Positions 3,239 to 31,056 of a DNA stretch of 64,000 bases are shown in pieces. Position 1 is the first letter of the stretch; every line of letters begins with the position of its first letter. The DNA is taken from assembly GCF_003018255.1 (NCBI RefSeq), contig NZ_CP027440.1, one strand, 5' to 3'. Made by a program: the position numbers and the translations under genes. Below the pieces are notes generated by a model that did not search any database, was not told the origin of the DNA, and saw only the letters and a program-made list of their open reading frames with translations. The stretch is from Escherichia coli (lineage in GTDB: Bacteria > Pseudomonadota > Gammaproteobacteria > Enterobacterales > Enterobacteriaceae).

Positions 3239-4002
3239 GGTTTGGGCTCCGGCAGCAGGGCGCGGGAAACCGGACCTTCCGTCACCAGGTACGCCACGGT
3301 GGTATCTTCTGCCAGACCACGCGGGCCGAGCCAGTCATGCTGGAACGCGGCAGCGGTGAACTGCCCCTGAAGCTCGCGCGGATCGAGCGTGATGCGCTGT
3401 CCGCTGTGATTTTGCAGGCGGATGGCGGTGACGGTGGTGGCGTTGACCTGCCATGACGCCAGCGGGGTGGCGGTAACCGGCTGCTGCGGCAGTAAAGTGG
3501 TGATGCGTTTCGCCAGCCGGACGGGCGCAGGTGTGACGCCGGGCAGGGCTTCGACGGTGCGCAGCGGCGCATACAGATTTTGCGCGGCGTAGCGCACCAG
3601 CAAGACGGGCAGAGGTTCTGTTGATGCTGTCACCGGGACGGATGTTTTTGCTGTGGCAGGCGTCTGCGGCGTATAGCTAATTTGCATTGGTTCAAGTGTC
3701 GAAGTGCCCTGGGTGGCATGAATATCCAGCAGGATCAGCTCACCGTTGCCGGTATCACGTAACTGGATGCGGGTGGCCGGGAACGCCGTGTTCGCCAGCA
3801 GGAAGACCTTGCCGCCTGCGCTTTGCAGACGCACTTTGCCTTCCAGCGTGGCGGGATAGCCAATGCGCACCGGTTTACCCACGTCAACAATTCGCTCCTG
3901 CCCGACATGCAGCGTGACGGGCAGCGGGATGTTTTCCCACTGCACCACTTCCGTGGCGAAGGCGGGGAAACTGAACAATAAAGTAAAGAGGACTGGCTTC
4001 AT
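3235..4002 (-). CDS. ICE T4SS exported protein (PFL_4704-like)
   Basis: ORF track 3235..4185, trimmed to the internal ATG at 4002 (MKPVLFTLLFSFPAFA signal peptide) that overlaps the upstream stop as ATGA. Confidence 0.5.
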   Translation of the reverse strand: MKPVLFTLLFSFPAFATEVVQWENIPLPVTLHVGQERIVDVGKPVRIGYPATLEGKVRLQSAGGKVFLLANTAFPATRIQLRDTGNGELILLDIHATQGTSTLEPMQISYTPQTPATAKTSVPVTASTEPLPVLLVRYAAQNLYAPLRTVEALPGVTPAPVRLAKRITTLLPQQPVTATPLASWQVNATTVTAIRLQNHSGQRITLDPRELQGQFTAAAFQHDWLGPRGLAEDTTVAYLVTEGPVSRALLPEPKP

Positions 4003-5938: not shown

Positions 5939-7180
5939 TCATTTCACTACATGAAGAATTTTTAGCATAGAGTTGTCAATGGTCTGTTTGATTTTCTCGT
6001 AATAAATTGGTTCAGATAATGGCGAGTCCCAGGTATGTATATCATTTTTATCAAAGGGAATACATTTCATCGCTGTCTTTTTTAGTTTTTTCCCTTTTTG
6101 TTCGTACTCGTCAATGTCATTTACAGTGAATTTCAAACTTTCTATTCTTGCTTTGACTATTGCTGTTGGGCAGATGAGTTTTATATTCCCTAAAGTAAAT
6201 GTGTTAACTCCAGTAATGAAGAATCTATCAGGGATGTTTTTATAGTATCGAGTATTCCATATTTTACCATTAAACATACCTGCTGGGTGAGTTGCTCTTT
6301 CAATATAGTATTCATGGGTTCTCTGGTCACTAATCCCTGAAAGATTCATTGTCATATTAGCTATCATGTTGGGAATAGGTCTGTACCAAACGCTAAGTGC
6401 AGCGGTTGCGACAGGTATAAATATTAAAACAACAATAATTCCTGTCATTTTATTGCCGTTTTGCCGTTCATTAATATGTATGATACCAGGCAGAATGCCA
6501 ATTGTAACAATAACTACAGTTATGGCAATGAGTATGCTCATCTCATACCAGTCACTAGTACCCTCACTGAAATTAAGTTGGTTAAACAGAAACATCATTG
6601 GTAATATTTGTACTACTCCAGGTATTATAAGTTGTAAGGATAACCAGAAGTTGAATCCTTTCTTTCTGGATAGTTTTTCGTATCGCACTGTATTATTTAA
6701 GCGAGATTTTTGTTTTCTAAATAGCCGAATCGCACATGTAACATAGCTGTGAATAAATATGGAAATAATACTAAAGGCTGTAATTATGTAGCCATTCCAT
6801 TTTGTCATGTAATAAATGTAATAAGCAATGATTAGCAGGCAGCATATAAATAAGCTATTCTGATAGCAAACAGTAGAAATCCGATGGGTGATGCTAGAAT
6901 ATACCTTTAACTTGTTTTCATATCCAGAGTAAATAAGTATTAAAATAAAAGATGAGATGAAAATTATTAGGCTGAATCCTGATATCGATAATAAAATAAA
7001 AAAGAATATAATCCCTAAGGTTGAACTGAGGTTTACAGCATCGAAAAAAATATCTAATCTATCAATGTTTGATAGGTAAAACCATATAACTGCTATCGTG
7101 AATCCAGTGATGAAGGTAGATGAGGTTACTACTGAAATAATGAATTTTTTGTTTATGATATTAAAAATAGGTTTGTCCAT
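5939..7180 (-). CDS. AT-rich cargo protein: polytopic membrane N-terminal half (~8 TM helices) plus C-terminal soluble domain, unknown function
   Basis: 413 aa ORF; conspicuously AT-rich, I/K/N/Y-rich codon usage unlike the GC-rich ICE backbone; no recognisable catalytic motif. Confidence 0.6.
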   Translation of the reverse strand: MDKPIFNIINKKFIISVVTSSTFITGFTIAVIWFYLSNIDRLDIFFDAVNLSSTLGIIFFFILLSISGFSLIIFISSFILILIYSGYENKLKVYSSITHRISTVCYQNSLFICCLLIIAYYIYYMTKWNGYIITAFSIISIFIHSYVTCAIRLFRKQKSRLNNTVRYEKLSRKKGFNFWLSLQLIIPGVVQILPMMFLFNQLNFSEGTSDWYEMSILIAITVVIVTIGILPGIIHINERQNGNKMTGIIVVLIFIPVATAALSVWYRPIPNMIANMTMNLSGISDQRTHEYYIERATHPAGMFNGKIWNTRYYKNIPDRFFITGVNTFTLGNIKLICPTAIVKARIESLKFTVNDIDEYEQKGKKLKKTAMKCIPFDKNDIHTWDSPLSEPIYYEKIKQTIDNSMLKILHVVK

Positions 7181-7225
7181 GGTTTGAATTCCATCTCTAA
7201 AAAATTTCTTGTCTTGTGTTTTTTA

Positions 7226-7510
7226 TCACCAATTTACAGGTAAGCGCCGATGGGTATGAAACACGCGTAAAACCTGAATTATATTATTTCGTACTCGATA
7301 GGGAATGATATAAGGGTAATTATGAAGAATGAGCTCACGTGTTTCAGGTACCCTTCCTTCCCGGCCCATAGCGGGTTGCTCTTTGAGCAGTTGCGTAAGT
7401 CGCCAGACTTCGTTCACAAACCGTTCCGCAGCCTGCGGATCGTCTTCAGCAATATACCGGAACTCAGCTTCGAGATTGGCAATGGCTTTACGTAGCCACT
7501 TAATTTCCAT
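7226..7510 (-). CDS. Type II toxin, RelE/ParE family
   Basis: 94 aa ORF with RelE/ParE-like size and sequence; overlaps the upstream antitoxin gene by 11 nt. Confidence 0.7.
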   Translation of the reverse strand: MEIKWLRKAIANLEAEFRYIAEDDPQAAERFVNEVWRLTQLLKEQPAMGREGRVPETRELILHNYPYIIPYRVRNNIIQVLRVFHTHRRLPVNW

Positions 7511-7745
7511 CTGGCTTTACTCCCAGACGTTGAAACAGCTTATCCACCTCATCTGAAGTGGCAAAATCACCGGCATCAGCTTCCTGAATGGCCTGCTCAA
7601 TCTCTGCAACTTGCCAGGCCTCCCGGGCAACATAATCTTCAATTGCCTGATTTGCCAGCCAGGACTTTGAGCGTCCGGTCGCTTTTGATAATGCTTCCAG
7701 TTGCGTGGAAAGATTGTTGTTTAAACGGACTGACATTACGCCCAT
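7500..7745 (-). CDS. Type II antitoxin, ribbon-helix-helix (ParD/CopG-like)
   Basis: ORF track 7500..7820; likely start ATG at 7745 (MGVMSVRLNNNLSTQLEALSKATGRSKSWLANQAIEDYV); ~80 aa, immediately upstream of and overlapping the toxin. Confidence 0.6.
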   Translation of the reverse strand: MGVMSVRLNNNLSTQLEALSKATGRSKSWLANQAIEDYVAREAWQVAEIEQAIQEADAGDFATSDEVDKLFQRLGVKPDGN

Positions 7746-7810
7746 ATTGGTGGCCTCATACACATGTACACATTGTATACATTGTAGTGAGGTGCGATTT
7801 TTTGAGCAAC

Positions 7811-8458
7811 TTATAACCAACGTTTAAAGCTTCCTGCTGCCATCCATACCGCTATCCCGGACCATAAGGCGGCAGGAAGTAAAACCAGCATCGCGGGCAG
7901 AGAAAATGGCTGCGCCAGATAAACCACCCAAAGCGTGGTGGTGACTGAACTGCCGCACCTGATGACATAACGGTGGAGAAAAATGGATTCCAGCCCGGAG
8001 CCAAACCGTCTTAAATCCCGGTGTACCAGGCCTTCTGTCAGCCCGGTTACAGCACTGAGGCACAGCAGTGGCAACATGATAACCAGCCACGTCAGGCGCA
8101 GCGCAAAGCTGATCATGGTATAAGCCAGGACGGTAACGGGTTCGTGGAACAACCGACTCACGGCCTTATGTCTGACATCATTAACGCGGGTTATTCCATG
8201 CTCCAGCAGTACTCGTATCTCTTTCCCCAAAGGATGTGGCTGTACCGCAATAATCAGTTCCACCTTCTCCTGCCTCATCACCTGAAAAACATGCCTGCTC
8301 CCTTCCTGCGGCCACCAGAAATATAGCCCCACTAGTTCCAGCACCACTCGCAGCACCAGCGTACCGATAACCAGCCCAATAATCCGTCCGGCCAGTGACA
8401 ATAGCCAGCCAATCGGTCCCTGTGGTGGGCGTGACGGAGGCGGTCGCAGCTCACTCAT
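7811..8458 (-). CDS. ICE membrane protein (PFL_4695-like)
   Basis: ORF track 7811..8527, trimmed to ATG at 8458 overlapping the traD stop (ATGA); multiple TM helices. Confidence 0.5.
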   Translation of the reverse strand: MSELRPPPSRPPQGPIGWLLSLAGRIIGLVIGTLVLRVVLELVGLYFWWPQEGSRHVFQVMRQEKVELIIAVQPHPLGKEIRVLLEHGITRVNDVRHKAVSRLFHEPVTVLAYTMISFALRLTWLVIMLPLLCLSAVTGLTEGLVHRDLRRFGSGLESIFLHRYVIRCGSSVTTTLWVVYLAQPFSLPAMLVLLPAALWSGIAVWMAAGSFKRWL

Positions 8459-18488: not shown

Positions 18489-19779
18489 GGCGCACCTCCC
18501 GCAGCCGCCGCTGGCGGCACAGGCTAATAAGCTGCATCAGTTGCTGGATCTGAGCGTTGTTGTAGTCCGGCGACAGCAACAATTCGAGGGCGGGCATCGG
18601 CGTACTGGTGTCGCCATTCAGGGCCGCCAGCACCTGATAGCAGCGCTGTGCCGCCGGGTGGGGAAAATCGTGGCAAGGCGCGAGGGTGAAACCGGCCGGA
18701 GCGCTGTCGTCCGGCTGGATACAGGCGTCCAGTCCCCAGCAGGCACACAGCGACTGTGCCGTATGCACCAGCGGTGAGGGCTTTGGCTCATCGGGCGCGG
18801 CGGGTTCAGTCGGTGGCTCAGGCTCTGGTAGTGGTGCTTTTTCCACTTCCGGCGGTGGCGGCCAGAGGACCTTTTCGGCCGGAGGCCCCAGCAGCACCTG
18901 CCGCTTGCTCTGACCGTCAGTCAGTTCCGCCAGCAACGTATTCCAGCTCATGCCGCTGCGACAGCTCATCTCACCGAGCAGTTCGTCCTGCACCAGTTGC
19001 GGTACCACGGCTTCCGGCTCGCCGTTGAAGATGGCGAGGGCGGTGCTGAACAGGTCGGCAAATTCGGGCTGGCGTTCCAGCGGCATCAGCTTTACCCAGA
19101 CCTGTTCTGCTGCGCTGCGTAGTGACAGCAGGCGATCGATAACCTTGCGGGTAAGACCGCCATATAGCGCGTTTGGGATGCAGGGCAGCAGCCAGTCTAC
19201 GGTCTGTAGCATCCGGCTGATTTGCGACTGGCTGACGGGATAGCCGTCGCGGGTGAGTTGTTCCGCCAGCGCCAGCTGCGTCGGGCATTCAATGCCTGCC
19301 TCGAGGTAAAGATCGCGCAGGTGCAGGACCCCTTCCGCCCGTTCGATAAACATCAATCCGTTATGCAGGTCGCTTTCGGCCAGATGGCCGATCAGGCACT
19401 GGACTTCGCCTTGCTGCGGTGACAGCGTTTCCGGCCACGGTCTGAACGGCCAGCAGACGCGGTGGTAACGCTCATCCTGCGTCTCCTGCCACAGTTCATT
19501 GAGGATGGCGAGGCGCGTATTTCCGCCGCTGGCGAGCATATATTTTTCATCACCGGGGCGGCGGGTCAGTACCGGCGGGTTATCCAGCCCACGGGCAAGA
19601 ATTGACGCCTTCAGCACGTCATAGCCGGGGTTGCGGGTGACGCGGGGATTGAGGGAGAACGGCTGGATTTGCTCCAGGCTGACCTGGACCATTTCCTGTT
19701 CTCCGGTATTGCTGGCGCCGTGAAGCCAGCGGTTGAGCAGGTGTGAAGCGCACATAATCTTCCTCCGGCATTCAGACAT
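18472..19779 (-). CDS. ParB-family partition / nuclease-domain protein of ICE
   Basis: 435 aa; N-terminal ParB/Srx-like region; proline-rich linker. Confidence 0.55.
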   Translation of the reverse strand: MSECRRKIMCASHLLNRWLHGASNTGEQEMVQVSLEQIQPFSLNPRVTRNPGYDVLKASILARGLDNPPVLTRRPGDEKYMLASGGNTRLAILNELWQETQDERYHRVCWPFRPWPETLSPQQGEVQCLIGHLAESDLHNGLMFIERAEGVLHLRDLYLEAGIECPTQLALAEQLTRDGYPVSQSQISRMLQTVDWLLPCIPNALYGGLTRKVIDRLLSLRSAAEQVWVKLMPLERQPEFADLFSTALAIFNGEPEAVVPQLVQDELLGEMSCRSGMSWNTLLAELTDGQSKRQVLLGPPAEKVLWPPPPEVEKAPLPEPEPPTEPAAPDEPKPSPLVHTAQSLCACWGLDACIQPDDSAPAGFTLAPCHDFPHPAAQRCYQVLAALNGDTSTPMPALELLLSPDYNNAQIQQLMQLISLCRQRRLREVRHDTLS

Positions 19780-19972
19780 CGCGGGTAAGCCGGATGCGCT
19801 GGTGGATCCACGCGTCCACCTCGCTTTCCAGCCAGGCGACGTGGCGGCTATTGAGTCGAATGGACGGCGGAAACTGTTGCAGCTGGATTTGTCGATAAAT
19901 CCACGATTTACCGAAGCCGATTTTATCTTCCACCTGGCGTAAGCGTAAAAATCTGTCGCTATTCATAACCAT
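19772..19972 (-). CDS. alpA: AlpA-family transcriptional regulator / excisionase-like DNA-binding protein
   Basis: 66 aa; RLRQVEDKIGFGKSWIYRQI... helix-turn-helix typical of AlpA. Confidence 0.6.
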   Translation of the reverse strand: MVMNSDRFLRLRQVEDKIGFGKSWIYRQIQLQQFPPSIRLNSRHVAWLESEVDAWIHQRIRLTRDV

Positions 19973-20104
19973 TCCTCCTGTGTCCAGATTCGTTCACATC
20001 AGCACGATAGGCGTGGTTATCAAAGCAGCAGCGTCCCTGCCAGGCAGTAAAAATCCTTATCTGGGTTAGTGAGAGTTGTTAGTTGAAAGGGTTAGTTGAT
20101 CGCG

Positions 20105-21210: not shown

Positions 21211-23157
21211 ATGAATTTTGAAGAGCTTATAAATGATATTGAAAGACTCTTAATTGGTAAAGAGTTGCAGTCTATAAATCCTAACACCCCCCCATTATTC
21301 CTTTTAAAAATAGACAGGGATATTGGTAAATATTACGTGTCTGTTTCTTTAAATGCTAAGCCTACGGCAAGGTCAATTTCTGAATTTGAATATATATTTA
21401 ATGACTTACTGCGTAAAGGGTTTTGTAATGTAGATCAGTCATTATATGGTAGCTCTTCAAGCCGTAATCACCCGGAAACAATATTTGCAAACTTGCCTTA
21501 TATTCAATTCTTTAAGTTCAAGAAAAAGAAACATATATTATTACGTAATAAAAATGTACACGAAGCAGGTCAACTTTCTGAATTACAAGGGGCTGAGTCT
21601 CGTGCTATAAGGAAGCAAATAGAAAATTATTTATCTCTAAATTTAAGTGAAATTGCAGAGCAGCAGTTAAAATCGTTGGAAAAAATGTTCGATGCGTATG
21701 ATGCTATTTTAAAAAAATACCCAGGGGATATCCCTGTTATAATGGCTGAGCAAGGCTTGTTGGGATTAAAAAACATTAGCGAAGTACTGATTAATTCTTA
21801 TGTTTCCTTGGATTTTGACAGTAGTGGCGATAAAATAAATAAATTAAGTAAATTTAAACAGGTGGAGTTATTTAAAGAAGATTTATCTTTAGAGGATTTA
21901 ATTGAGTCCCCTGAGATAAGTGGAGTTGATTCAGGTGATAAGAATATTGAGGAACAATCGGAATCAGAATTAGCACCTGAGCAAAAACGTACGGGCATTG
22001 CAAAAATGCTTATGACTACACCAGTTTTAACACTAATTTTTGATCGTGTAAGATATGATGAAATTGAGTTACAACCTGACTTTCAGAGAAAAGACCGAAT
22101 TTGGCCTGACGACAAAAAGTCAAAACTTATTGAATCAATATTAATGAAGCTTCCATTACCGGGGTTTTACTTTGGTGAAAAGCCAAACGGTAACTGGGTA
22201 GTTATTGATGGCCTTCAAAGAACGACTACAATTTGTGATTATATGAGTGGTCATTTCTCATTGAAAGGGCTCTCTATTTTAGAGCACTTAAATGGAAAGA
22301 GTTTTAAAGATCTTACTCGAACCGAGCAACGAGACATTAGAGAGTATCAAATTACGGCTTACCAAATAGAACTAAATGATGATAGTTCTGAATTGGTTGT
22401 AGAACTATTCCATAGAATAAACACTTATGGTGTAAAGTTAAGTAGTCAAGAAATAAGATCTGCACTTAATAAAGGCAATAGCGTAACCTTTTTACGTTAT
22501 TTAGCTTCATTAGAAACGTTCAAAAAAGCGACGCAATTTAAAGTAAAGCCGGACAGGCAAAAAGATATGGAGCTCTGTTTGTCCGCTCTTGCTTTTATGG
22601 TACTTGGTTATAATAACTATGGCCAACATTCGTATGATCATTTTTTATGTAGTGCAATGCAGAAGCTAAATAATTATCCATTAAGCATCATTAATAAAGA
22701 AGAGATTGATGCTGGAACAGCTCTTATTTCTCCTTCAAGTGAAGTCTTTTTAACTTTATATTCAAAATATAATCAGGCTTTAATCTTAGCAAATGAAGTT
22801 TTTGGTGAAATAGCTTTTTCAAAAGATCCGGAAAATAAAAAATCACCTATTAATAAACAACTCTTTGAGTTAATTGTTACTGTTTTCTCTGTATTTGACT
22901 CACATCAAAAGGAGATGATGTTAGCTAATGGTGATAAATTTATTGATAGCTTATACTTGGCTATTGAGGAGAATAGTAGTCGATATGCTAAGTGGGAGTC
23001 TGATACATATGAAAAGGACGATAGAGGATTTAGAGACTCAATATCTACTTCGACAGGTAAAAGAATATCTGTTGTATATCGATTTGATGCTTTTTTAAAT
23101 ATCCTTGGAAAAAGCACAGGAATAACTATTGATAGTAAATTATTACAGGGGGAGTGA
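21211..23157 (+). CDS. DUF262 / ParB-like (GmrSD N-terminal-type) domain protein with unknown N- and C-terminal domains
   Basis: 648 aa; central region has LQPDFQRKDRIW and DGLQR (variant of the DGQQR motif); no recognisable DUF1524/His-Me nuclease motif; AT-rich. Confidence 0.7.
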   Translation: MNFEELINDIERLLIGKELQSINPNTPPLFLLKIDRDIGKYYVSVSLNAKPTARSISEFEYIFNDLLRKGFCNVDQSLYGSSSSRNHPETIFANLPYIQFFKFKKKKHILLRNKNVHEAGQLSELQGAESRAIRKQIENYLSLNLSEIAEQQLKSLEKMFDAYDAILKKYPGDIPVIMAEQGLLGLKNISEVLINSYVSLDFDSSGDKINKLSKFKQVELFKEDLSLEDLIESPEISGVDSGDKNIEEQSESELAPEQKRTGIAKMLMTTPVLTLIFDRVRYDEIELQPDFQRKDRIWPDDKKSKLIESILMKLPLPGFYFGEKPNGNWVVIDGLQRTTTICDYMSGHFSLKGLSILEHLNGKSFKDLTRTEQRDIREYQITAYQIELNDDSSELVVELFHRINTYGVKLSSQEIRSALNKGNSVTFLRYLASLETFKKATQFKVKPDRQKDMELCLSALAFMVLGYNNYGQHSYDHFLCSAMQKLNNYPLSIINKEEIDAGTALISPSSEVFLTLYSKYNQALILANEVFGEIAFSKDPENKKSPINKQLFELIVTVFSVFDSHQKEMMLANGDKFIDSLYLAIEENSSRYAKWESDTYEKDDRGFRDSISTSTGKRISVVYRFDAFLNILGKSTGITIDSKLLQGE

Positions 23158-24305
23158 TGAAAAAAATTACGTCTTTAACATTAAAAAATTTCAAAGCTTA
23201 TAAAGAACAGAGTTTTGATTTTAGTAATTTAACTGTATTTTGCGGTAATAATTCTGTTGGTAAAAGTACGGCTATTCAAGCTATCGGTATGTTTCTCCAA
23301 TCAGATATGAATGGTAACAGTAATCTAAAAATAAATGGCGATTTAGTTCATGTCGGAGACTTCGACGATATTCATAATTTCAGTATGCGTGAGGATGATG
23401 TTTTATATTTAAAATATACATTTGAAGACGATACGGCTTGCTGGGGATATGGTATAGAAGAAGGGGATGCTAGAGAAGAACTTTCTAGGAAAAATGAATT
23501 ACCTTTTATTGGGTGTGATAAACAATTAAGAACTATAACAAACTCACTTAAAGATAACTTTTCATTCCAATATTTGGAAGCGGAGAGATTTGGTCCAAGA
23601 GATAATATTCCATTATCACAGCACAATTATCATGAAGGTTGGCTTGGGAAAAATGGGGAACATACAATTGAAGTTCTTGAGAGTTTGGTCACAAGGAGGC
23701 GTTTAAATTTTTCTGCTCAAGAGGATCCTAGGAAACATGAAGGAATTATTAATAATAATGTTTTCAATCATATTGAAGCATGGATGTCTGAGATTTCACC
23801 AGGGCATCGTATCTCACCTAGAATTGAGGCTAGGGCGAATGTTGCATTTAATGTCATAATCCCTTCACCTGGACAATTAACGAAACCTATTAACATAGGA
23901 TTTGGATTTAGTTATGCTCTTAGTATTGTCACTGCTTTAATGCTGGCATCAAAAAATGAACTCGTTATTATTGAAAATCCTGAGGCTCATCTACATCCAA
24001 GAGGTCAAAGCTATTTAGGACGACTTATTGCTTTATCAGCAAAAGCAGGGATCCAGGTTATTATTGAGACTCATAGTGATCATCTTCTTAATGGCATAAG
24101 AGTAATTGCACGCACAGATCCAACTTTTGATGCTTCTCTTTTTACTCTTTACTATATTTCACGAGAAAATGATGAAACATCTGTCGCCAAAATAAAAATA
24201 AATAATGAAGGGAAACTTTCCGAATGGCCTAGAGGGTTCTTTGATCAACAATCACAGGATATGTATACGATAATGACAGGCTCTTTTGATCATCCCAATA
24301 TTTAA
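23157..24305 (+). CDS. ABC/SMC-like AAA ATPase (AAA_15/AAA_21-type with DUF3696-like C-terminal region)
   Basis: ORF track 23154 (GTG); ATG at 23157 overlaps upstream TGA (TGATG) with GGGGAG RBS. Walker A GNNSVGKST; ENPEAHLHP Walker B/D-loop signature; ETHSDH H-loop. Confidence 0.75.
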   Translation: MKKITSLTLKNFKAYKEQSFDFSNLTVFCGNNSVGKSTAIQAIGMFLQSDMNGNSNLKINGDLVHVGDFDDIHNFSMREDDVLYLKYTFEDDTACWGYGIEEGDAREELSRKNELPFIGCDKQLRTITNSLKDNFSFQYLEAERFGPRDNIPLSQHNYHEGWLGKNGEHTIEVLESLVTRRRLNFSAQEDPRKHEGIINNNVFNHIEAWMSEISPGHRISPRIEARANVAFNVIIPSPGQLTKPINIGFGFSYALSIVTALMLASKNELVIIENPEAHLHPRGQSYLGRLIALSAKAGIQVIIETHSDHLLNGIRVIARTDPTFDASLFTLYYISRENDETSVAKIKINNEGKLSEWPRGFFDQQSQDMYTIMTGSFDHPNI

Positions 24306-24324
24306 TATTGTAGGGACATATAAA

Positions 24325-25209
24325 ATGAAAGCTGGCGTGTTTCTTATTCCTGAATGTTTTGATTTCAATACGGATATTTTATCTTTAAGTTCGGACCTTG
24401 ATCTGGCTTCGAAACTCGTAGTAAATACCCGTTCAGAATTTATTCACTTTATGAAATCTAGGGAGTTTGACTCGAAGATTGCGGAGTTATTGTTTTCCAC
24501 ATCACCTGATTATGCTGGAATGATGTCAAGATTTTACGATCAGCATCTATCAAAAGTTATAAAAATGGATATTAATGACGATGATATTATTGATATTATA
24601 AATAGCGAAGAACCTAAGTATTCTAACCGTTTGTTATCAATTTTTAATACGGGAAAAAAAGATTTAAATATTAAATATGTTAATAGATTAATTGACTCAG
24701 AAATTAAGATGAATGATTATTGTACTGATATCTTATTGAATTACCCAAGAAATGACGAGCAATACTGTGAGGATATACAGCAGGTTTATAAAAATTTAAT
24801 TTTCCTAGATTATCCAGAGGCAAAAGAATTTAAGACATTTAATAGTCTCAAGAGAATGACCGGTGGTTATGATAATTTCTTGAAGGCTATAACCAATTTT
24901 TTAAGTTATATGAATAAATTCGAATTCAAAACGAAAGATATGATGGATACATTGAAAATGATGGAGAGTGATTTAGGATCTCCAGTAACTCCGGAAGGAG
25001 GGGGGAAGAAAAGCCGATCTTTGAAAAGAGATTTTTTAATTAATGGAAAGCTATATACAAATGTAAACTGCGAATTCCATTTGAAATTAGAAAATGTTGA
25101 TGATACTAAGGGAAACAGAAAACACCATAAGAATAGAATTTATTTTGGATTTATTATGATAAGTGATAAAAACAGAGTGGCAATAGCTCATATTGGGGAA
25201 CACATTTGA
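24325..25209 (+). CDS. Hypothetical protein, third gene of the DUF262-ATPase operon
   Basis: ORF track 24286..25209; ATG at 24325 with AGGGA RBS follows the ATPase stop by 20 nt; 294 aa, no recognisable motif. Confidence 0.5.
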   Translation: MKAGVFLIPECFDFNTDILSLSSDLDLASKLVVNTRSEFIHFMKSREFDSKIAELLFSTSPDYAGMMSRFYDQHLSKVIKMDINDDDIIDIINSEEPKYSNRLLSIFNTGKKDLNIKYVNRLIDSEIKMNDYCTDILLNYPRNDEQYCEDIQQVYKNLIFLDYPEAKEFKTFNSLKRMTGGYDNFLKAITNFLSYMNKFEFKTKDMMDTLKMMESDLGSPVTPEGGGKKSRSLKRDFLINGKLYTNVNCEFHLKLENVDDTKGNRKHHKNRIYFGFIMISDKNRVAIAHIGEHI

Positions 25210-25219
25210 AATCATTTTA

Positions 25220-25248
25220 AACCTACTGATAGTATATATCAGTAGGTT
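25220..25248. terminator. Perfect palindromic hairpin between convergent operons (likely bidirectional terminator)
   Basis: AACCTACTGATAGTATATATCAGTAGGTT between stop of the plus-strand operon (25209) and stop of the minus-strand restriction gene (25271). Confidence 0.5.
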
Positions 25249-25270
25249 CATGTTAATTTGATGTTCTTAG

Positions 25271-26344
25271 CTATATAACACAATCTTCCATAAAAGAATC
25301 TAGAAATAAATCATTTATTCCTTTAGGTTTTCTTCGGTCGCATAGAGAGTATAATTCTTCAACTGAAGAGTAAGGGAAGAATTTAGCTTTTAATTCAATG
25401 AATTGGGGCATGTTTGCAAATTCTATCACCTTTGCTCGATATTCATCAGGAGCAACGATAGTCCAACGGATATCTTGTAATCTCGGTGCATGATCATAGA
25501 ATTGTTTCATGCGAGTCAGACCACTTTTTATACCAGTACTGTGTTCAATCTCCATTACTGCTGGCATCATGCGGCCTTCCCTAAACCAAATGCAGTCTAT
25601 AAGACGAGCATCTTTAATCGCATCATTATACGATTGGAGTACTTGCTCATCAGATAATGAACTTATTACACCGTCCATTTGCGCTATAGCTTTACCATTA
25701 TATTGTAAGCTACGATCATTGGCTGCTACCCAAGTATCTAAACCTAAACAATAACCTATTTTTACTAAGGCAATTTGTATCTGAGCATGACGTCTTTTTT
25801 CTTCAATAGTCATGCCTTTAGTCGGTTTAATTGTCTCAATATCAACGCTTTGGTGAACAACATCGAAGCTCATTTCAGAGACAACAATATTAGTCTGGTG
25901 CTCAATTAACAAACCATTAGTATGTGGCATATCTGGCAGAAAAATCAGATGCTTATGTCCTGGTTTTATAGACTTTTGTGCATTCATGATTTCCAGTCTG
26001 GCTGGCCTACACCAATAGAACTCTGGAGTATGTGCGAGCAAGCTCTCCAATACCGAGCGGGTGTTGTAACTGGCACCGAAAACCCTTTCAACGTTGACAG
26101 GTCTGTTTTCTTCGAGTGCATTTGCAAGTCGCCAAAGCATTTGAGTCGAAATACTCTCTGTTTTAGCTGTTGCTTGAGTTTGACCTTTCTTAGGATCAAA
26201 TCTCTTTATTTCGATAGGACCTTCGGGATGTTGGATACGTACAATCTCAATCTTCCCGCTATTCCTATCGTTTATATAGTTAAACAGCGTATTTTTGGGT
26301 AAGCTCGAAATCGCCTGAACCAGATTCGATGCTGTTATCCTCAT
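25271..26344 (-). CDS. Putative Type II restriction endonuclease partnered with the adjacent C5-methyltransferase
   Basis: 357 aa ORF directly downstream of and overlapping the MTase 3' end (about 65 nt, ATG at 26344 with AGGA RBS); no family motif recognised; call is from gene context. Confidence 0.5.
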   Translation of the reverse strand: MRITASNLVQAISSLPKNTLFNYINDRNSGKIEIVRIQHPEGPIEIKRFDPKKGQTQATAKTESISTQMLWRLANALEENRPVNVERVFGASYNTRSVLESLLAHTPEFYWCRPARLEIMNAQKSIKPGHKHLIFLPDMPHTNGLLIEHQTNIVVSEMSFDVVHQSVDIETIKPTKGMTIEEKRRHAQIQIALVKIGYCLGLDTWVAANDRSLQYNGKAIAQMDGVISSLSDEQVLQSYNDAIKDARLIDCIWFREGRMMPAVMEIEHSTGIKSGLTRMKQFYDHAPRLQDIRWTIVAPDEYRAKVIEFANMPQFIELKAKFFPYSSVEELYSLCDRRKPKGINDLFLDSFMEDCVI

Positions 26345-27419
26345 TACTGTATCCTAAATGTTGCAAAATTGATTGGGCAATACCGAGCGCGGCGATATAG
26401 GGAACTCCGTTTCCGACTGTTTTAAACATATTCGACAAAGTCATATCCCCTGGTAGCTCAAAATTTTTTGGCAAAGACTGGATTGCCAATGCTTCAGCGA
26501 CCGTAATACGACGAGGTTTGTATGGGTGAAGGTGAACTTCATTATTACCATATGCTGCTGTTGGAGAGTATCTCCAGCGATGAAGCCTTTTATATGATTT
26601 TTTACTATCGTCGCCTTCTTCTACTGACTGGAATCTTGCTAAACCGGCTCGGGCCGTAAATACATGTTTAGCGTTTGGATGATTGGTAACATCGTTTTTC
26701 TCGAACCAGTATTCTATAGTAAGTTCTTCTGGAATACCTTGCGGGCATTCCATACTTGAGTCTTCTTCGTATGTGTTTGTTGTTGGCCAAGGGAACTGGA
26801 AAGCTTCCTTATTGGGGTATATTTGGCCACTCCATTCGAAGTTTTTGGCTAAAGACTTATCAAGAAAACCAACTAAAATAATCCTTTCTCGATCTTGAGG
26901 CGCACCGTATTCAATTGAATTAATCAATCTTTCATGCAGGATATATCCTACTGAAGCTAGTTCATTCTTAATTTGTTCGAAAAATTCTCTATGTTTAAGA
27001 GTCCGGTATAAGCCTTTAACGTTTTCAAAAAGGAAGAAATCAGGCATCATTTCAATTATCAGGTCAATGTAACTTTGTGATAATTTGCCATTTTCACCAT
27101 CTTTGCCTTTGTTTTTGCCAGCAACAGAAAAGTCAGGGCATGGTGGTCCGCCAATGAAGCCCACTAGGCGGTTTTCACCTTTCAGTGTTTTCATGCTATG
27201 CTTAATCACTGAATGCTCAATAGTTTCAATGCTTTCTTGGGCATACCCAAAGCGTGGCGGCTGTTTGCCAAGTTTTTTTCTTGAGTGTTTATACGCGTCC
27301 ATGAAGGGAGGATGGAATTCATTGACGAAAACCACCTCATACCCGGCATTTTCGAAGCCTAGGTCAAGAAAACCTGATCCTGAAAAGAATGAAAATATAG
27401 CGGGTTTCATTGTGGACAT
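26280..27419 (-). CDS. DNA cytosine-5 methyltransferase (Dcm-like)
   Basis: 379 aa; motif I FSGSGF, PC motif GGPPCPDFSVAGK, ENV motif ENVKGL. Confidence 0.85.
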   Translation of the reverse strand: MSTMKPAIFSFFSGSGFLDLGFENAGYEVVFVNEFHPPFMDAYKHSRKKLGKQPPRFGYAQESIETIEHSVIKHSMKTLKGENRLVGFIGGPPCPDFSVAGKNKGKDGENGKLSQSYIDLIIEMMPDFFLFENVKGLYRTLKHREFFEQIKNELASVGYILHERLINSIEYGAPQDRERIILVGFLDKSLAKNFEWSGQIYPNKEAFQFPWPTTNTYEEDSSMECPQGIPEELTIEYWFEKNDVTNHPNAKHVFTARAGLARFQSVEEGDDSKKSYKRLHRWRYSPTAAYGNNEVHLHPYKPRRITVAEALAIQSLPKNFELPGDMTLSNMFKTVGNGVPYIAALGIAQSILQHLGYSNEDNSIESGSGDFELTQKYAV

Positions 27420-27644
27420 TTTATACCTATCAAGTTAGCTTAAATTTTTACTAAATATCTCGCTGTACGATCCTACTATTTTACATGATAACTTGTTAAT
27501 TATCAATTTACTTTTTAATATATTAGCAAATAAGACCTGGCACTACTTCAGATTAGATAGTATTCATTGCTATAAAGTTAGGTGTTAATATATTGATTAA
27601 TAGTATAAGCTGCTATTATAGATTTAGAAACCGAAGGAACTTAT

Positions 27645-28100
27645 ATGCCTGATATGAGGTTATTTAAATCAAAAAACACCAAACTTGAGTTAAGAATCAG
27701 GAAGCCGTTGTTTGCCAGAGGATTTCGTTATCGATTGCATAATAGTGGTTTGCCTGGTAGACCAGATATGTATTTCCCTAAATACAATGCAGTCATTTTT
27801 ATCCATGGCTGTTTTTGGCATGGGCATGATAACGGCTGCCCTATATCTCACACTCCTAAAAATAATGAATCGTACTGGCAAAATAAAATCAATAAAAATC
27901 AAGAAAGAGATGTCAAAAATCAATATGTTCTTGCATCTAAAAACATCCGCGTTCTGATTATATGGGAGTGTGCAATAAAACTTAAAAGTATTGATTTTGT
28001 CGATTTTATTGATTACATCGATGAATGGCTTAGAGGTGGGGCAAATTCAACACAGATGAGCGCAAAGGAACCAATGCCGACTTTTGAGTTTCCGAAATGA
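27645..28100 (+). CDS. vsr: Very short patch repair endonuclease (Vsr)
   Basis: 151 aa; Vsr-like sequence incl. FIHGCFWHGH; divergent from the C5-MTase as is typical. Confidence 0.85.
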   Translation: MPDMRLFKSKNTKLELRIRKPLFARGFRYRLHNSGLPGRPDMYFPKYNAVIFIHGCFWHGHDNGCPISHTPKNNESYWQNKINKNQERDVKNQYVLASKNIRVLIIWECAIKLKSIDFVDFIDYIDEWLRGGANSTQMSAKEPMPTFEFPK

Positions 28101-28282
28101 ATTATTATGACAAGTTCCCTTGAGTGGTAATATCTAACATCGTTATTTGCTAATATATATATGAAATAAAGTAATTGCCAAGAAATTTATTACAAAACAA
28201 GACCCGCAAAAAATCTCTTTCCATGTGGGGTTTTATTAGCTATTAGTGTTTGGTTAAATTATTAACCATCAATAGGCATCCT

Positions 28283-28423
28283 ATGCTTCAATCTCTGAAC
28301 CACTTAACGCTCGCCGTCAGTAATTTGCAAACTAGCCTGACATTCTGGCGCGATTTACTAGGGCTACATGTGGGAGATTTAGCATCCCGACTGACGCAGT
28401 GCCGGGAGAGGCCTTGCTCTTGA
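28283..28423 (+). pseudogene. fosA: Remnant of a fosA-like (glutathione transferase, fosfomycin resistance) gene with large internal deletion
   Basis: 46-codon ORF MLQSLNHLTLAVSNLQTSLTFWRDLLGLHVGDLASRLTQCRERPCS: first ~28 aa match the FosA N-terminus and the rest matches the FosA C-terminal HVGSLAARLAACRE region, from memory. Confidence 0.45.
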
Positions 28424-28555
28424 ATGCGTTTCGGACCTGGAAAATAATTACGCAACTTTGTGATCTTCCACCCAGTATTCAATTTTATGTCCCATTTTGG
28501 GGGCAAATCCTCAAAATAAAATCTCACAAACCATTATTTTTCAACGAATTAAACG

Positions 28556-28588
28556 CAAAGGCGAGTCCGGCCTTCGACCTTCGCACCA
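28556..28588. repeat. Degenerate copy of the 3' end of tRNA-Leu (leuX): candidate distal att repeat (attR) of the genomic island
   Basis: GCGAGTCCGGCCTTCGACCTTCGCACCA resembles the leuX 3' end GGTTCGAGTCCGGCCTTCGGCACCA (from memory); no full tRNA present. Confidence 0.45.
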
Positions 28589-29353
28589 TCGGAACATCAA
28601 TAGACGTCAACGGACGTTTTTTTATGACTGAAATCCGCGCCACACAAGGCTTTTCGCTATTTTTCGCTCAACCTAAGTCAACCTACATCAACTTACTGAT
28701 GTGGATACAGCTACAGCTGCGGCTATATCCCGATTCGATAATGTTTGTACCCACACAAAACCCTTGAAAGGCTACAAGGCTGAAATTGTCTAAACCATAG
28801 AGATGATTTTTATGATCCAGTCTTTCTCTTGTTGAGATAGTTCCAGTTTGCTCACTCGTGTTAAGAAGGTATTGATCACCTGAACATCCGAATTGGTGAG
28901 CCTATTTAATAGAGCGGGTGGTATACCTTTACTAACAATCGCTTTGCGGTGACTTTCGTAGTTTTTATTACTCATTGTTGATCCTCAAAAATCATTGTAT
29001 GGCGGCATTGATCGTTTCCAGCAACCTTTACTTACTCACTTCGAACTGCATCCTCGTAGACTGTTCCACTACAATAATCGAAAAGGCGCGGATGTCCATT
29101 CAGGTATCCCGCTAATACGTATAGCAATAACAATGGCTTATGCGGCGCGCGCTGTTCACCCTTGTGCCAGATTTTTATATTGGCAATTGCCTGCTGTAGC
29201 GATTTACTGGAAGCCATTGATATCCCTGGCAGTGAAATAATTGCGATCATGCTCGCAAATTTTCTGCTGTTCAAGCCTGCAAGTGAAGATATATTACCTT
29301 GATCTCATTTGTTTTTTTGCTGCCTGTTCTGAGAACGTATAAGGACATTCTCC

Positions 29354-30004
29354 ATGAATAAACTCCCTGATCATCTTCCGCGGCGGTATATCATCGAAGC
29401 TATCCATTTATGGGATGCGGGAGAAACTCATCAGTTCCAGCCTGCGCGGTTGTATGAGATTGAATATCATGGCCGACGTTACCCCTCGAAGGCGATTGCT
29501 GGCATCGCAGCGACATTGATGACGGGGACGCAATTTACCCCTGCGGATTTCACCGGCGGAATAAAATCTAAATGCGTCAAACTACTCATAGAGCAGGGAT
29601 TTCATATTCATCAGGATAAAGCCGCTGCGGCTCCCATAGCCGACGTTCTGTTCCCGGATGAGTTGCCGTCGCAGGAGACATACCTTGAAGGTGCGGCGAT
29701 AAAGGTGACAGTAAACCGCTATGAACGCGATAAAAAGGCCCGAGATAAAGCGGTCGAACATCATGGATGCCAGTGCAACGTATGCGGCGTTGATCTGGTG
29801 AAGATCTATGGTGATATCGCTGAAGGCTTTATCCATATGCATCACCTGGTGCCGCTTTCAGCCATTAAAGAGGATTACCAGCTGGATCCAGTTAATGATT
29901 TGCTGCCTGTGTGCCCTAATTGCCATGCGATGCTGCACCGACGCAAACCACCGTTTTCACCGGAGGAGTTAAAAGCGTTGATGGATGCAAATAAATCAAA
30001 TTAA
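29354..30004 (+). CDS. HNH endonuclease with uncharacterised N-terminal domain
   Basis: 216 aa; C-terminal HNH motif CQCNVCG...HMHHLVPLS...N...CPNCH. Confidence 0.7.
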   Translation: MNKLPDHLPRRYIIEAIHLWDAGETHQFQPARLYEIEYHGRRYPSKAIAGIAATLMTGTQFTPADFTGGIKSKCVKLLIEQGFHIHQDKAAAAPIADVLFPDELPSQETYLEGAAIKVTVNRYERDKKARDKAVEHHGCQCNVCGVDLVKIYGDIAEGFIHMHHLVPLSAIKEDYQLDPVNDLLPVCPNCHAMLHRRKPPFSPEELKALMDANKSN

Positions 30005-30011
30005 TGAACGC

Positions 30012-30992
30012 TCACCTTTCGCGCCAAAACCGCAAAATTGCTTCTACAAACCTGTCAGAAATAATCCCCCGACGGGCTGCCGCGCTGAAATGACTGCTTC
30101 GCAGTGCCGTCGTCCAGTTCTCCGGTGACCGGTACGCTGAACCGTAATATCCCGTGCTTAAATCGTCCGGATCTTCATCAGGCGCGTTCGTCAGTCCTCT
30201 TTCACCTTGTTGCTGGAAGTCGACGAAAATAATATTGGCTAAAACATTATTTTGATAATTGCCATAAATCGCTTCATACGCATGAGGGAAATTTTCTTTC
30301 CAGTACCAGGTGGTATCGCCGCAAAACCACGGTGCGTCAGTAATATTATTAAGCTGAGAATGGTATTGTTTTAGATCCCTACGAAAGGCTTCAACCATAT
30401 GATTAAAGTGTTGAGGGTGTGACGAGTAGTCACAGGTCATTAAGTCAAATTCGCCTTGCATCCAGCATACGCCGAGGAATTTGTTCTGCGGATTTTTTGC
30501 CAGTGCGGCTCGCGTTCTGCTGACTAAATCCTGGTACAGCGGAGTATCCGTTCCCCAACGACAAGCATCATGGCTGGCTCCGTGCCGTTCTGAATATGTC
30601 CCTTCGCTGCCCGCGGTAAAAGCCGATCCGCCACGGCAACACGGAACGATGAGAACCCCTGCGTTATCAGGAATAAAGGGCAGTAATTTCCGTGCAATAT
30701 GCAGTGCCTGGCCAACGGTGCCGTACTGTGTTTGATGATTTGTTGCCAGAGGATGGTGATAACCCTGCATATCCTGAACATCGTGTGGGCAGTGAGTCAG
30801 TGGAATAATGTCGTTAAAGTGACATGACGGGCCTCCGGGATGCGTATGCGCAAATCTCGCTAATTGTTTAATTCTGGGATGAGGCGCATCTTCCCTGTCC
30901 GGTAATGGCAGTCCTTCGCCATACGCCATGGCATTAGACTGACCAGCAACGGTAAGAACATAGTAATAATCGGGCGATATTATTGCGTTCAT
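30012..30992 (-). CDS. nanS: N-acetyl-9-O-acetylneuraminate esterase NanS
   Basis: ORF 30012..31019 trimmed to ATG at 30992 (MNAIISPDYYYVLTVAGQSNAMAYG...), 326 aa; nanS-nanM-nanC context. Confidence 0.85.
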   Translation of the reverse strand: MNAIISPDYYYVLTVAGQSNAMAYGEGLPLPDREDAPHPRIKQLARFAHTHPGGPSCHFNDIIPLTHCPHDVQDMQGYHHPLATNHQTQYGTVGQALHIARKLLPFIPDNAGVLIVPCCRGGSAFTAGSEGTYSERHGASHDACRWGTDTPLYQDLVSRTRAALAKNPQNKFLGVCWMQGEFDLMTCDYSSHPQHFNHMVEAFRRDLKQYHSQLNNITDAPWFCGDTTWYWKENFPHAYEAIYGNYQNNVLANIIFVDFQQQGERGLTNAPDEDPDDLSTGYYGSAYRSPENWTTALRSSHFSAAARRGIISDRFVEAILRFWRER

Positions 30993-31056
30993 ATAATTTT
31001 CGCGTAATACAAATGACAAATTGATAGCAGGGCCCCTTTACCGAGGCCCTGAAGCG

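Follow-up and report, generated by a model that had tools for sequence, protein, structure and literature searches.

Positions 28283-28447 (+ strand) of the 64,000-nucleotide stretch of Escherichia coli DNA analysed here (contig NZ_CP027440.1, hereafter the window) almost certainly hold a pseudogene that descends from a fosfomycin-resistance gene, encoding a glutathione transferase of the FosA7 family, and that has lost 258 bp in frame. This fosA7 relic is an ordinary resistance-gene pseudogene, and constitutes the last feature inside the right boundary of a ~60-kb integrative conjugative element located at leuX. The FosA7 family, its locus and the resistance function of the intact gene have already been published (PMC10352792, PMC9431306, PMC8751274); in the literature found, no description of the deleted fosA7 allele was encountered.

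Identity and extent of the pseudogene

A sequence-only reading of this DNA had described a 46-codon open reading frame (ORF) joining a FosA-like N-terminus to a FosA-like C-terminal segment, and our searches bear out that description. The ORF (28283-28423, + strand) runs from an ATG at 28283 to a TGA at 28421-28423 and its product is MLQSLNHLTLAVSNLQTSLTFWRDLLGLHVGDLASRLTQCRERPCS, with codons 1-28 corresponding to FosA residues 1-28 and codons 29-46 to FosA residues ~115-132. When all PDB chain sequences were searched with phmmer, residues 1-29 of the product matched FosA residues 1-29 and residues 26-45 matched FosA residues 112-131, the top chain being 1npb_A (FosA of Tn2921, E 1.7e-14), followed by FosA3, FosA-KP and PA1129; these proteins were the top structural-database matches for both halves of the ORF. 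The matched structures are full-length Mn2+/K+-dependent dimers, whereas the relic keeps only the first strand and helix and the C-terminal tail. Among NCBIfam families, fosA7 ranked first (E 7.3e-20), with a score of 71.5 bits that lies far under the cut-off of 305 because most of the protein is missing; the Fos_GSH equivalog scored 48.8 bits and its cut-off of 180 was not reached, and the Pfam Glyoxalase family was matched with E 3.4e-5. Homology to FosA therefore holds at the family level, while the full length (about 135-141 aa) and the curated score are not attained by a product of 46 aa. The family named from the sequence can be narrowed to FosA7: both ends of the relic display 92-95% DNA identity to fosA7.5 or fosA7, the arm and att repeat that follow are conserved, other FosA genes (Enterobacter, Lelliottia) are just 70-80% identical to FosA7.5 at the protein level, and an intact fosA7.5 is found at the same position in other E. 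coli.

The ORF exists as described, but it is not the full extent of the remnant. The fosA-derived sequence continues in frame beyond the TGA to the native TAA (28445-28447), so that the whole pseudogene comprises, from ATG to TAA, 165 of the 423 bp (39%) of an intact FosA7-family gene. The length of 46 codons is due to a secondary nonsense change, GGA to TGA (28421-28423, + strand), specific to the lineage of the window; this codon is GGA (Gly133 of FosA7.5) in all intact alleles and also in a 54-aa sister form of the relic. Two codons earlier, codon 45 is TGC (28415-28417, + strand) and encodes Cys in place of the Tyr of intact alleles (Tyr131 of FosA7.5, Tyr128 of PA1129). Both changes came after the deletion, in the lineage of the window. 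In NZ_AP045067, the near-identical chromosome of E. coli JNE23-011, the RefSeq PGAP label, a partial 'VOC family protein' pseudogene, covers just the initial 84 bp (28283-28366) and leaves out the C-terminal part, and the NCBI entries for the 46- and 54-aa products are hypothetical or VOC proteins.

An in-frame deletion at short direct repeats

The relic is colinear with both ends of E. coli fosA7.5 (6013-6435 of its comparison locus) and of Salmonella fosA7. In an anchored comparison, its two halves are offset by exactly 258 bp, equivalent to 86 codons (29-114), and the breakpoints were mapped to nt 81-83 and 339-341 of the FosA7-family gene; the proposal of an internal deletion in a fosfomycin-resistance gene, for which a BLAST comparison with fosA alleles had been suggested as a check, is thus confirmed at the nucleotide level. 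The left 80 nt from the ATG are identical to fosA7.5 at 75 positions, and the right 81 nt are identical to the intact alleles at 74-77 positions (74/81 with fosA7.5).

Intact alleles carry two imperfect 12-bp direct repeats 258 bp apart, GCTGGGGTTGCA at nt 75-86 and GCTGGAGCTGCA at nt 333-344, the second being GCTGGAACTGCA in Salmonella fosA7; the layout is alike in fosA7.5, Salmonella fosA7 and a Salmonella variant. It is inside this repeat that the left alignment of the relic fades and the right alignment starts, and the junction itself is the hybrid repeat ACTAGGGCTACA (28357-28368), with the crossover placed between a left-diagnostic G at 28362 and a right-diagnostic C at 28364. Short direct repeats at breakpoints are a classical mark of slipped mispairing or RecA-independent deletion, and the loss of the 258 bp may have occurred by either of these routes, between the two short repeats. 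A search for an intact allele sharing the exact 5' sequence of the relic was negative, so that the parental repeats are read from relatives only; the 5' part of the relic is 91.6% identical to each of FosA7.5, FosA7 and the P0013 variant, all of them ~8% away.

Predicted loss of function

Sixteen FosA residues have been listed as essential (PMC11933065), and we placed them on the relic via an alignment of FosA7.5 with PA1129. Thirteen fall in the deleted codons 29-114, namely the equivalents of His64, Glu110, Ser94, Glu95, Ser98, Tyr100, Trp34, Tyr39, Trp46, Cys48, Tyr65, Asp103 and His107, and a fourteenth, the Tyr128 equivalent, is the Cys of codon 45. From the three Mn2+ ligands (His7, His64 and Glu110 in PA1129 numbering) only His7 is left, since His67 and Glu113 of FosA7.5 are deleted; the K+ site (Ser94, Glu95, Ser98) is gone altogether, as are most residues of the substrate/glutathione channel, with the Arg119 equivalent kept. 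As only His7 and the Arg119 equivalent remain of the 16 essential residues, we infer that the product would be inactive as an enzyme, in agreement with the earlier view that this is not a functional resistance gene.

Regarding expression, the 60 bp upstream of the native gene are not conserved in the relic, a promoter scan of the + strand upstream of the ORF detected no convincing site, and an Rfam scan of 27500-29500 at E<=1 yielded no match.

The island boundary at leuX

Beyond the native stop lies a non-coding segment that constitutes the right-end arm of the island (28448-28561), which is 88-94% identical to the sequences following fosA7.5, Salmonella fosA7 and the truncated copies of Citrobacter sp. 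NCU1 and Atlantibacter subterranea, and which in every case extends from the fosA7-family gene up to the att repeat. Next comes an attR-like, degenerate copy of the leuX tRNA-Leu(CAA) 3' end (28562-28588, + strand), composed of CGAGTCCGGCCTTCG, ACCTTCG and CACCA: positions 28562-28576 (CGAGTCCGGCCTTCG) match leuX nt 65-79 exactly over 15 nt, the only such match in the window, and are directly followed by a 7-bp duplication and then CACCA. This repeat holds a variable tandem repeat, CCTTCG(A/C)(A/C), with one copy in Salmonella and Atlantibacter, two in the window and in DETEC-S792, and three in E. coli A12 (at around 3960-4000 of its comparison locus). Just outside the island, a terminator-like hairpin with a T-run (28602-28626, + strand) lies in the conserved flank and has the same sequence in all strains compared.

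The boundary between island and flank can be set at 28561/28562, which leaves the relic 138 bp inside the leuX 3'-end repeat and upholds its earlier placement at an island edge. DETEC-S792 carries an unrelated CbtA/YeeU island on the left and is identical to the window exactly from 28562 onward, and A12 likewise displays an identical flank next to a different island. In the sister form of the relic, found in the genome of Res13-Lact-ER01-35 (hereafter Res13), homology to the window is lost within the leuX repeat. The flank beyond the repeat is present at full length in 786 genomes and partially in 3,129, and the fosA7 module in about 60-74.

A tRNA scan of the window detected no tRNA gene. In NZ_AP045067, tRNA-Leu (leuX) lies ~59.6 kb upstream of the relic, 31.4 kb before the start of the window, and is directly followed by a tyrosine recombinase pseudogene (a truncated integrase). 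The hallmarks of an integrative element are therefore present, that is, a tRNA gene with an adjacent integrase gene and, at the opposite boundary, a second copy of the tRNA 3' end.

The conjugative element and its cargo block

The window is near-identical to the corresponding region of NZ_AP045067, with features (455421 onward in that chromosome) offset by one base in the first ~21 kb and coinciding afterwards. By the annotation of NZ_AP045067, window positions 1-21,000 correspond to a conjugation and maintenance backbone, whose labels, of PFGI-1 and STY45xx type and taken solely from RefSeq annotation, include TraD, a MobH relaxase, TIGR037xx ICE proteins, PFGI-1-class PilL2, STY4528/STY4534-type replication proteins and ParB. 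A topoisomerase III gene (about 13885-15690, - strand) is annotated with an internal stop, and the integrase beside leuX (18818-20065 of the comparison locus) as truncated; since both are annotated as pseudogenes, mobility of the element is doubtful, and it may no longer be mobile.

Between the backbone and the relic lies an AT-rich cargo block (21211-28100, 35% G+C), always found left of the relic. It codes first for a GmrSD_N/DUF262 protein and a DUF3696 AAA ATPase, next for a hypothetical protein and a candidate endonuclease resembling NmeDI, and last for a C5 cytosine methylase and Vsr. The candidate endonuclease has 357 aa, carries an NmeDI_C domain tag in other assemblies and overlaps the C5 cytosine methylase. 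The block at this end of the element is of the defence type.

On the other side of the boundary, Salmonella has an intact 291-aa ScoMcrA-like gene (sulphur-binding domain plus HNH) after fosA7, whose counterpart in the window is an inverted 150-bp ScoMcrA-like fragment (29068-29217, - strand) and a separate 216-aa HNH ORF (29354-30004, + strand), the latter mostly deleted in the fosA7.5 strain 2013C-4974. Further right, RefSeq marks nanS (sialate O-acetylesterase) as an incomplete pseudogene at 30426-30992, yet an uninterrupted ORF is found at 30012-31019 (- strand) and other assemblies call a 326-aa SASA-domain product there, so the pseudogene flag may be an annotation artefact.

fosA7 modules in other genomes

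The closest intact relative is fosA7.5 of E. coli (WP_000941933.1), described by Milner et al. 2020 (as cited in PMC10352792), an intact gene of 423 bp (140 aa) that confers fosfomycin resistance. It shares with the relic its position upstream of an HNH gene, nanS, nanM, nanC and fimB, the arm and leuX repeat that follow, DNA that is 92% identical in the parts kept by the relic, and an N-terminus that differs only by S17T in the first 28 residues. In contrast, codons 29-114 are absent from the relic, which stops at codon 47 and possesses another upstream region, its left neighbours being the Dcm/Vsr block rather than the ISL3/IS3 elements found next to fosA7.5. In fosA7.5 strains, the arm and leuX repeat are followed by an endonuclease fragment and then by the HNH gene, nanS, nanM, nanC and fimB, and the published context of fosA7.5 agrees with this order (PMC9431306). 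The spread of fosA7.5 in E. coli has been ascribed in a review to an ISL3/IS3 composite transposon (PMC10352792).

The fosA7 gene of Salmonella enterica (Rehman et al. 2017, as cited in PMC10352792; PMC8751274) also belongs to the FosA7 family, has the Thr17 of the relic, and is the last gene before the leuX 3'-end repeat of a leuX-integrated island; the Salmonella variant P0013 (WP_183053146.1) and the relic have a common LTQCRERP C-terminal motif. Unlike the relic, the Salmonella gene is intact, with ~8% DNA divergence from the 5' part of the relic, and belongs to a different island of ~19.6 kb with helicase, methylase and endonuclease genes. In Salmonella CP117348.1, tRNA-Leu(CAA) and a 95-aa integrase fragment mark the start of this island, and its other end, ~19.6 kb further on, is formed by fosA7, the arm and GGCGAGTCCGGCCTTCGCACCA. 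A module of ~670 bp, whose limits are 71 bp upstream of the ATG and ~40 bp beyond the repeat, is common to fosA7.5 of E. coli and fosA7 of Salmonella.

Other wrecked copies occur at the same att-proximal site of this module; they were broken by insertion or 5' truncation, whereas the relic suffered an internal deletion that kept the frame. The FosA7-like genes of Citrobacter sp. NCU1 and Atlantibacter subterranea are truncated at the 5' end, with codons 37-140 and 89-140 left, respectively, and precede the same arm and repeat; FDAARGOS_1058 and seven other genomes keep the last ~37 bp of the gene plus the arm, beside IS3; and the arm alone is found in more than a dozen E. coli genomes. In E. 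coli 2011C-3911, fosA7 is split by IS66 (ISCro1); a 3' fragment of this strain that seemed to start at the breakpoint of the relic was rejected, the gene being merely split by that element. Among species-representative genomes there was no intact FosA7 nearer than fosA7.5, the matches being the FosA of Enterobacter, Lelliottia and Kosakonia at 70-80% and the two truncated copies.

From these comparisons we propose, with evenly balanced confidence, that the fosA7-family gene is part of a conserved right-end module of leuX islands, and not a free-standing or IS-borne passenger. The proposed module would comprise ~70 bp of upstream sequence, the gene, the ~114-bp arm and the leuX 3'-end repeat, and copies of it, whether intact or wrecked, occur in Salmonella, Citrobacter and Atlantibacter as well as in E. 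coli. No paper linking fosA7 with leuX was found in the literature searched.

Occurrence of the deleted allele

The 501-bp segment surrounding the ORF was found entire in only 3 of 5,426 complete E. coli genomes: JNE23-011 and JNE112863 at 100% identity, and Res13 at 95%. A further ~55 E. coli genomes yielded a two-piece match at 92% identity (E 1e-88), annotated 'FosA7.5', which begins just before the ATG and spans 589 bp there versus 329 bp in the window. The complete genomes with the same junction are independent, originating from Japan and Canada, and a metagenome scan with the junction pattern yielded one contig, arranged as in the Res13 form. In public assemblies the exact 46-aa product is present on 319 contigs and the 54-aa sister form on 116. 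A chance ORF or an assembly artefact has practically no probability given E-values of 1e-14 for protein and 1e-88 for DNA, and a junction recurring in the complete genomes of both countries, in the metagenome contig and in hundreds of draft assemblies.

The sister form, represented by Res13, lacks the TGA and reads through to the native stop, encoding 54 aa. It is 99.6% identical to the window from vsr up to the junction, with differences at 3 of 722 positions (0.4%) in 27645-28366. In 28367-28571 (Res13 locus 6268-6472), the two differ at 22 of 205 positions (11%), the first difference being at 28387, so the jump in divergence begins within 20 bp of the junction. Divergence amounts to 12.3% of sites in the 3' part of the gene and to 9.7% in the non-coding arm next to it; the 3' parts of the two forms are as far apart as modules of different genera. 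The relic is accordingly a mosaic, with a 5' part linked to the element and a variable 3' part plus arm, and a single simple intragenic deletion is insufficient by itself to account for the divergence jump.

Origin of the relic

In all 49 contigs read, the left neighbours of the relic are the same block from GmrSD_N to Vsr, whatever lies on the right: the HNH gene and nanS come after the 46-aa form, and a DUF6088/AbiEii islet of 2.7 kb, another copy of att and an integrase belonging to a different island come after the 54-aa form. On account of this constant left block, the relic is probably decayed cargo of the present conjugative element, with which it travels. The description of the relic as a footprint of earlier cargo in this hotspot consequently stands as regards cargo, and is probably not quite accurate as regards an earlier occupant. 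In Res13, the islet (6472-9163 of its locus) holds a 46-aa ORF, DUF6088 and an AbiEii toxin, has a copy of the arm and leuX repeat on either side, and is then followed by the integrase of a further island, a picture of tandem accretion at leuX.

The relic could instead be debris of an earlier occupant of leuX, that is, a resident fosA7 island to which the conjugative element was later fused. Homology to the fosA7 locus begins abruptly 11 bp before the ATG, the left cargo has 35% G+C versus 50% for the relic, and the 3' part, arm and flank of the window resemble those of resident fosA7.5 strains, all of which would fit a fusion of this kind. We nevertheless regard it as unlikely, if credible, since 49 of 49 contigs share the left neighbours across two different right contexts, and the two forms hardly differ, if at all, in the 5' part and the 182-bp spacer. 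Decayed cargo of the present element thus remains the preferred reading of the relic as a whole.

With respect to the junction, we lean towards a single old deletion, after which the 3' part and arm would have been swapped with those of resident modules by homologous exchange, because the unusual junction bases are common to both forms. The competing account is a hybrid junction, in which the 5' part and the 3' part plus arm would derive from two fosA7 modules in a tandem leuX array, joined by illegitimate recombination at the short repeats, possibly repeatedly. This account would directly explain why the two forms are 99.6% identical from vsr to the junction and 11% different from 28367 to the att core, and is consistent with their differing right-hand contexts and with the tandem att copies and related arms of Res13. 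We consider it improbable: every junction base is common to both forms, including the unusual A at 28366 on the side of the right parent; no allele varies in the 20 bp immediately to the right of the junction, which means that the boundary of divergence cannot be placed at the junction itself; and a later homologous exchange in the 205 bp of 3' part and arm fits equally well. A single deletion with subsequent exchange is hence the likelier account. The relic would have been passively inherited with the element and subject to neutral decay.

Retention of the mini-ORF (46 or 54 aa) for a function of its own, for example as a small regulatory or dominant-negative peptide, is very improbable. The deletion did preserve the frame, the 54-aa form reaches the native stop with no nonsense codon, and the alleles are found on more than 400 contigs. 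Against this, the form of the window has acquired the nonsense codon and the Tyr to Cys change, and over 27 codons the two forms differ by 6 changes of amino acid, the stop included, and by 3 silent changes. Since this 6:3 ratio is accompanied by a 3' divergence like that of the non-coding arm, the comparison indicates neutral decay rather than a selected mini-protein. Likewise, the lack of conservation in the native upstream region, with no promoter-like site on the + strand, speaks against such a function, and the abundance of the alleles is explained by linkage to the element.

Implications

For resistance prediction, the relic would point to fosfomycin susceptibility rather than resistance, and screens that accept partial hits (N-terminal primers, k-mer matching, low coverage thresholds) could miscall it as fosA7. 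If the fosA7-family gene does belong to a right-end module of leuX islands, the family would spread and be exchanged between genera via site-specific integration and homologous exchange at leuX, and the deleted allele would serve as a marker of one conjugative-element lineage. The tie between fosA7 and the leuX repeat across several genera helps to trace the route of this resistance family into E. coli.
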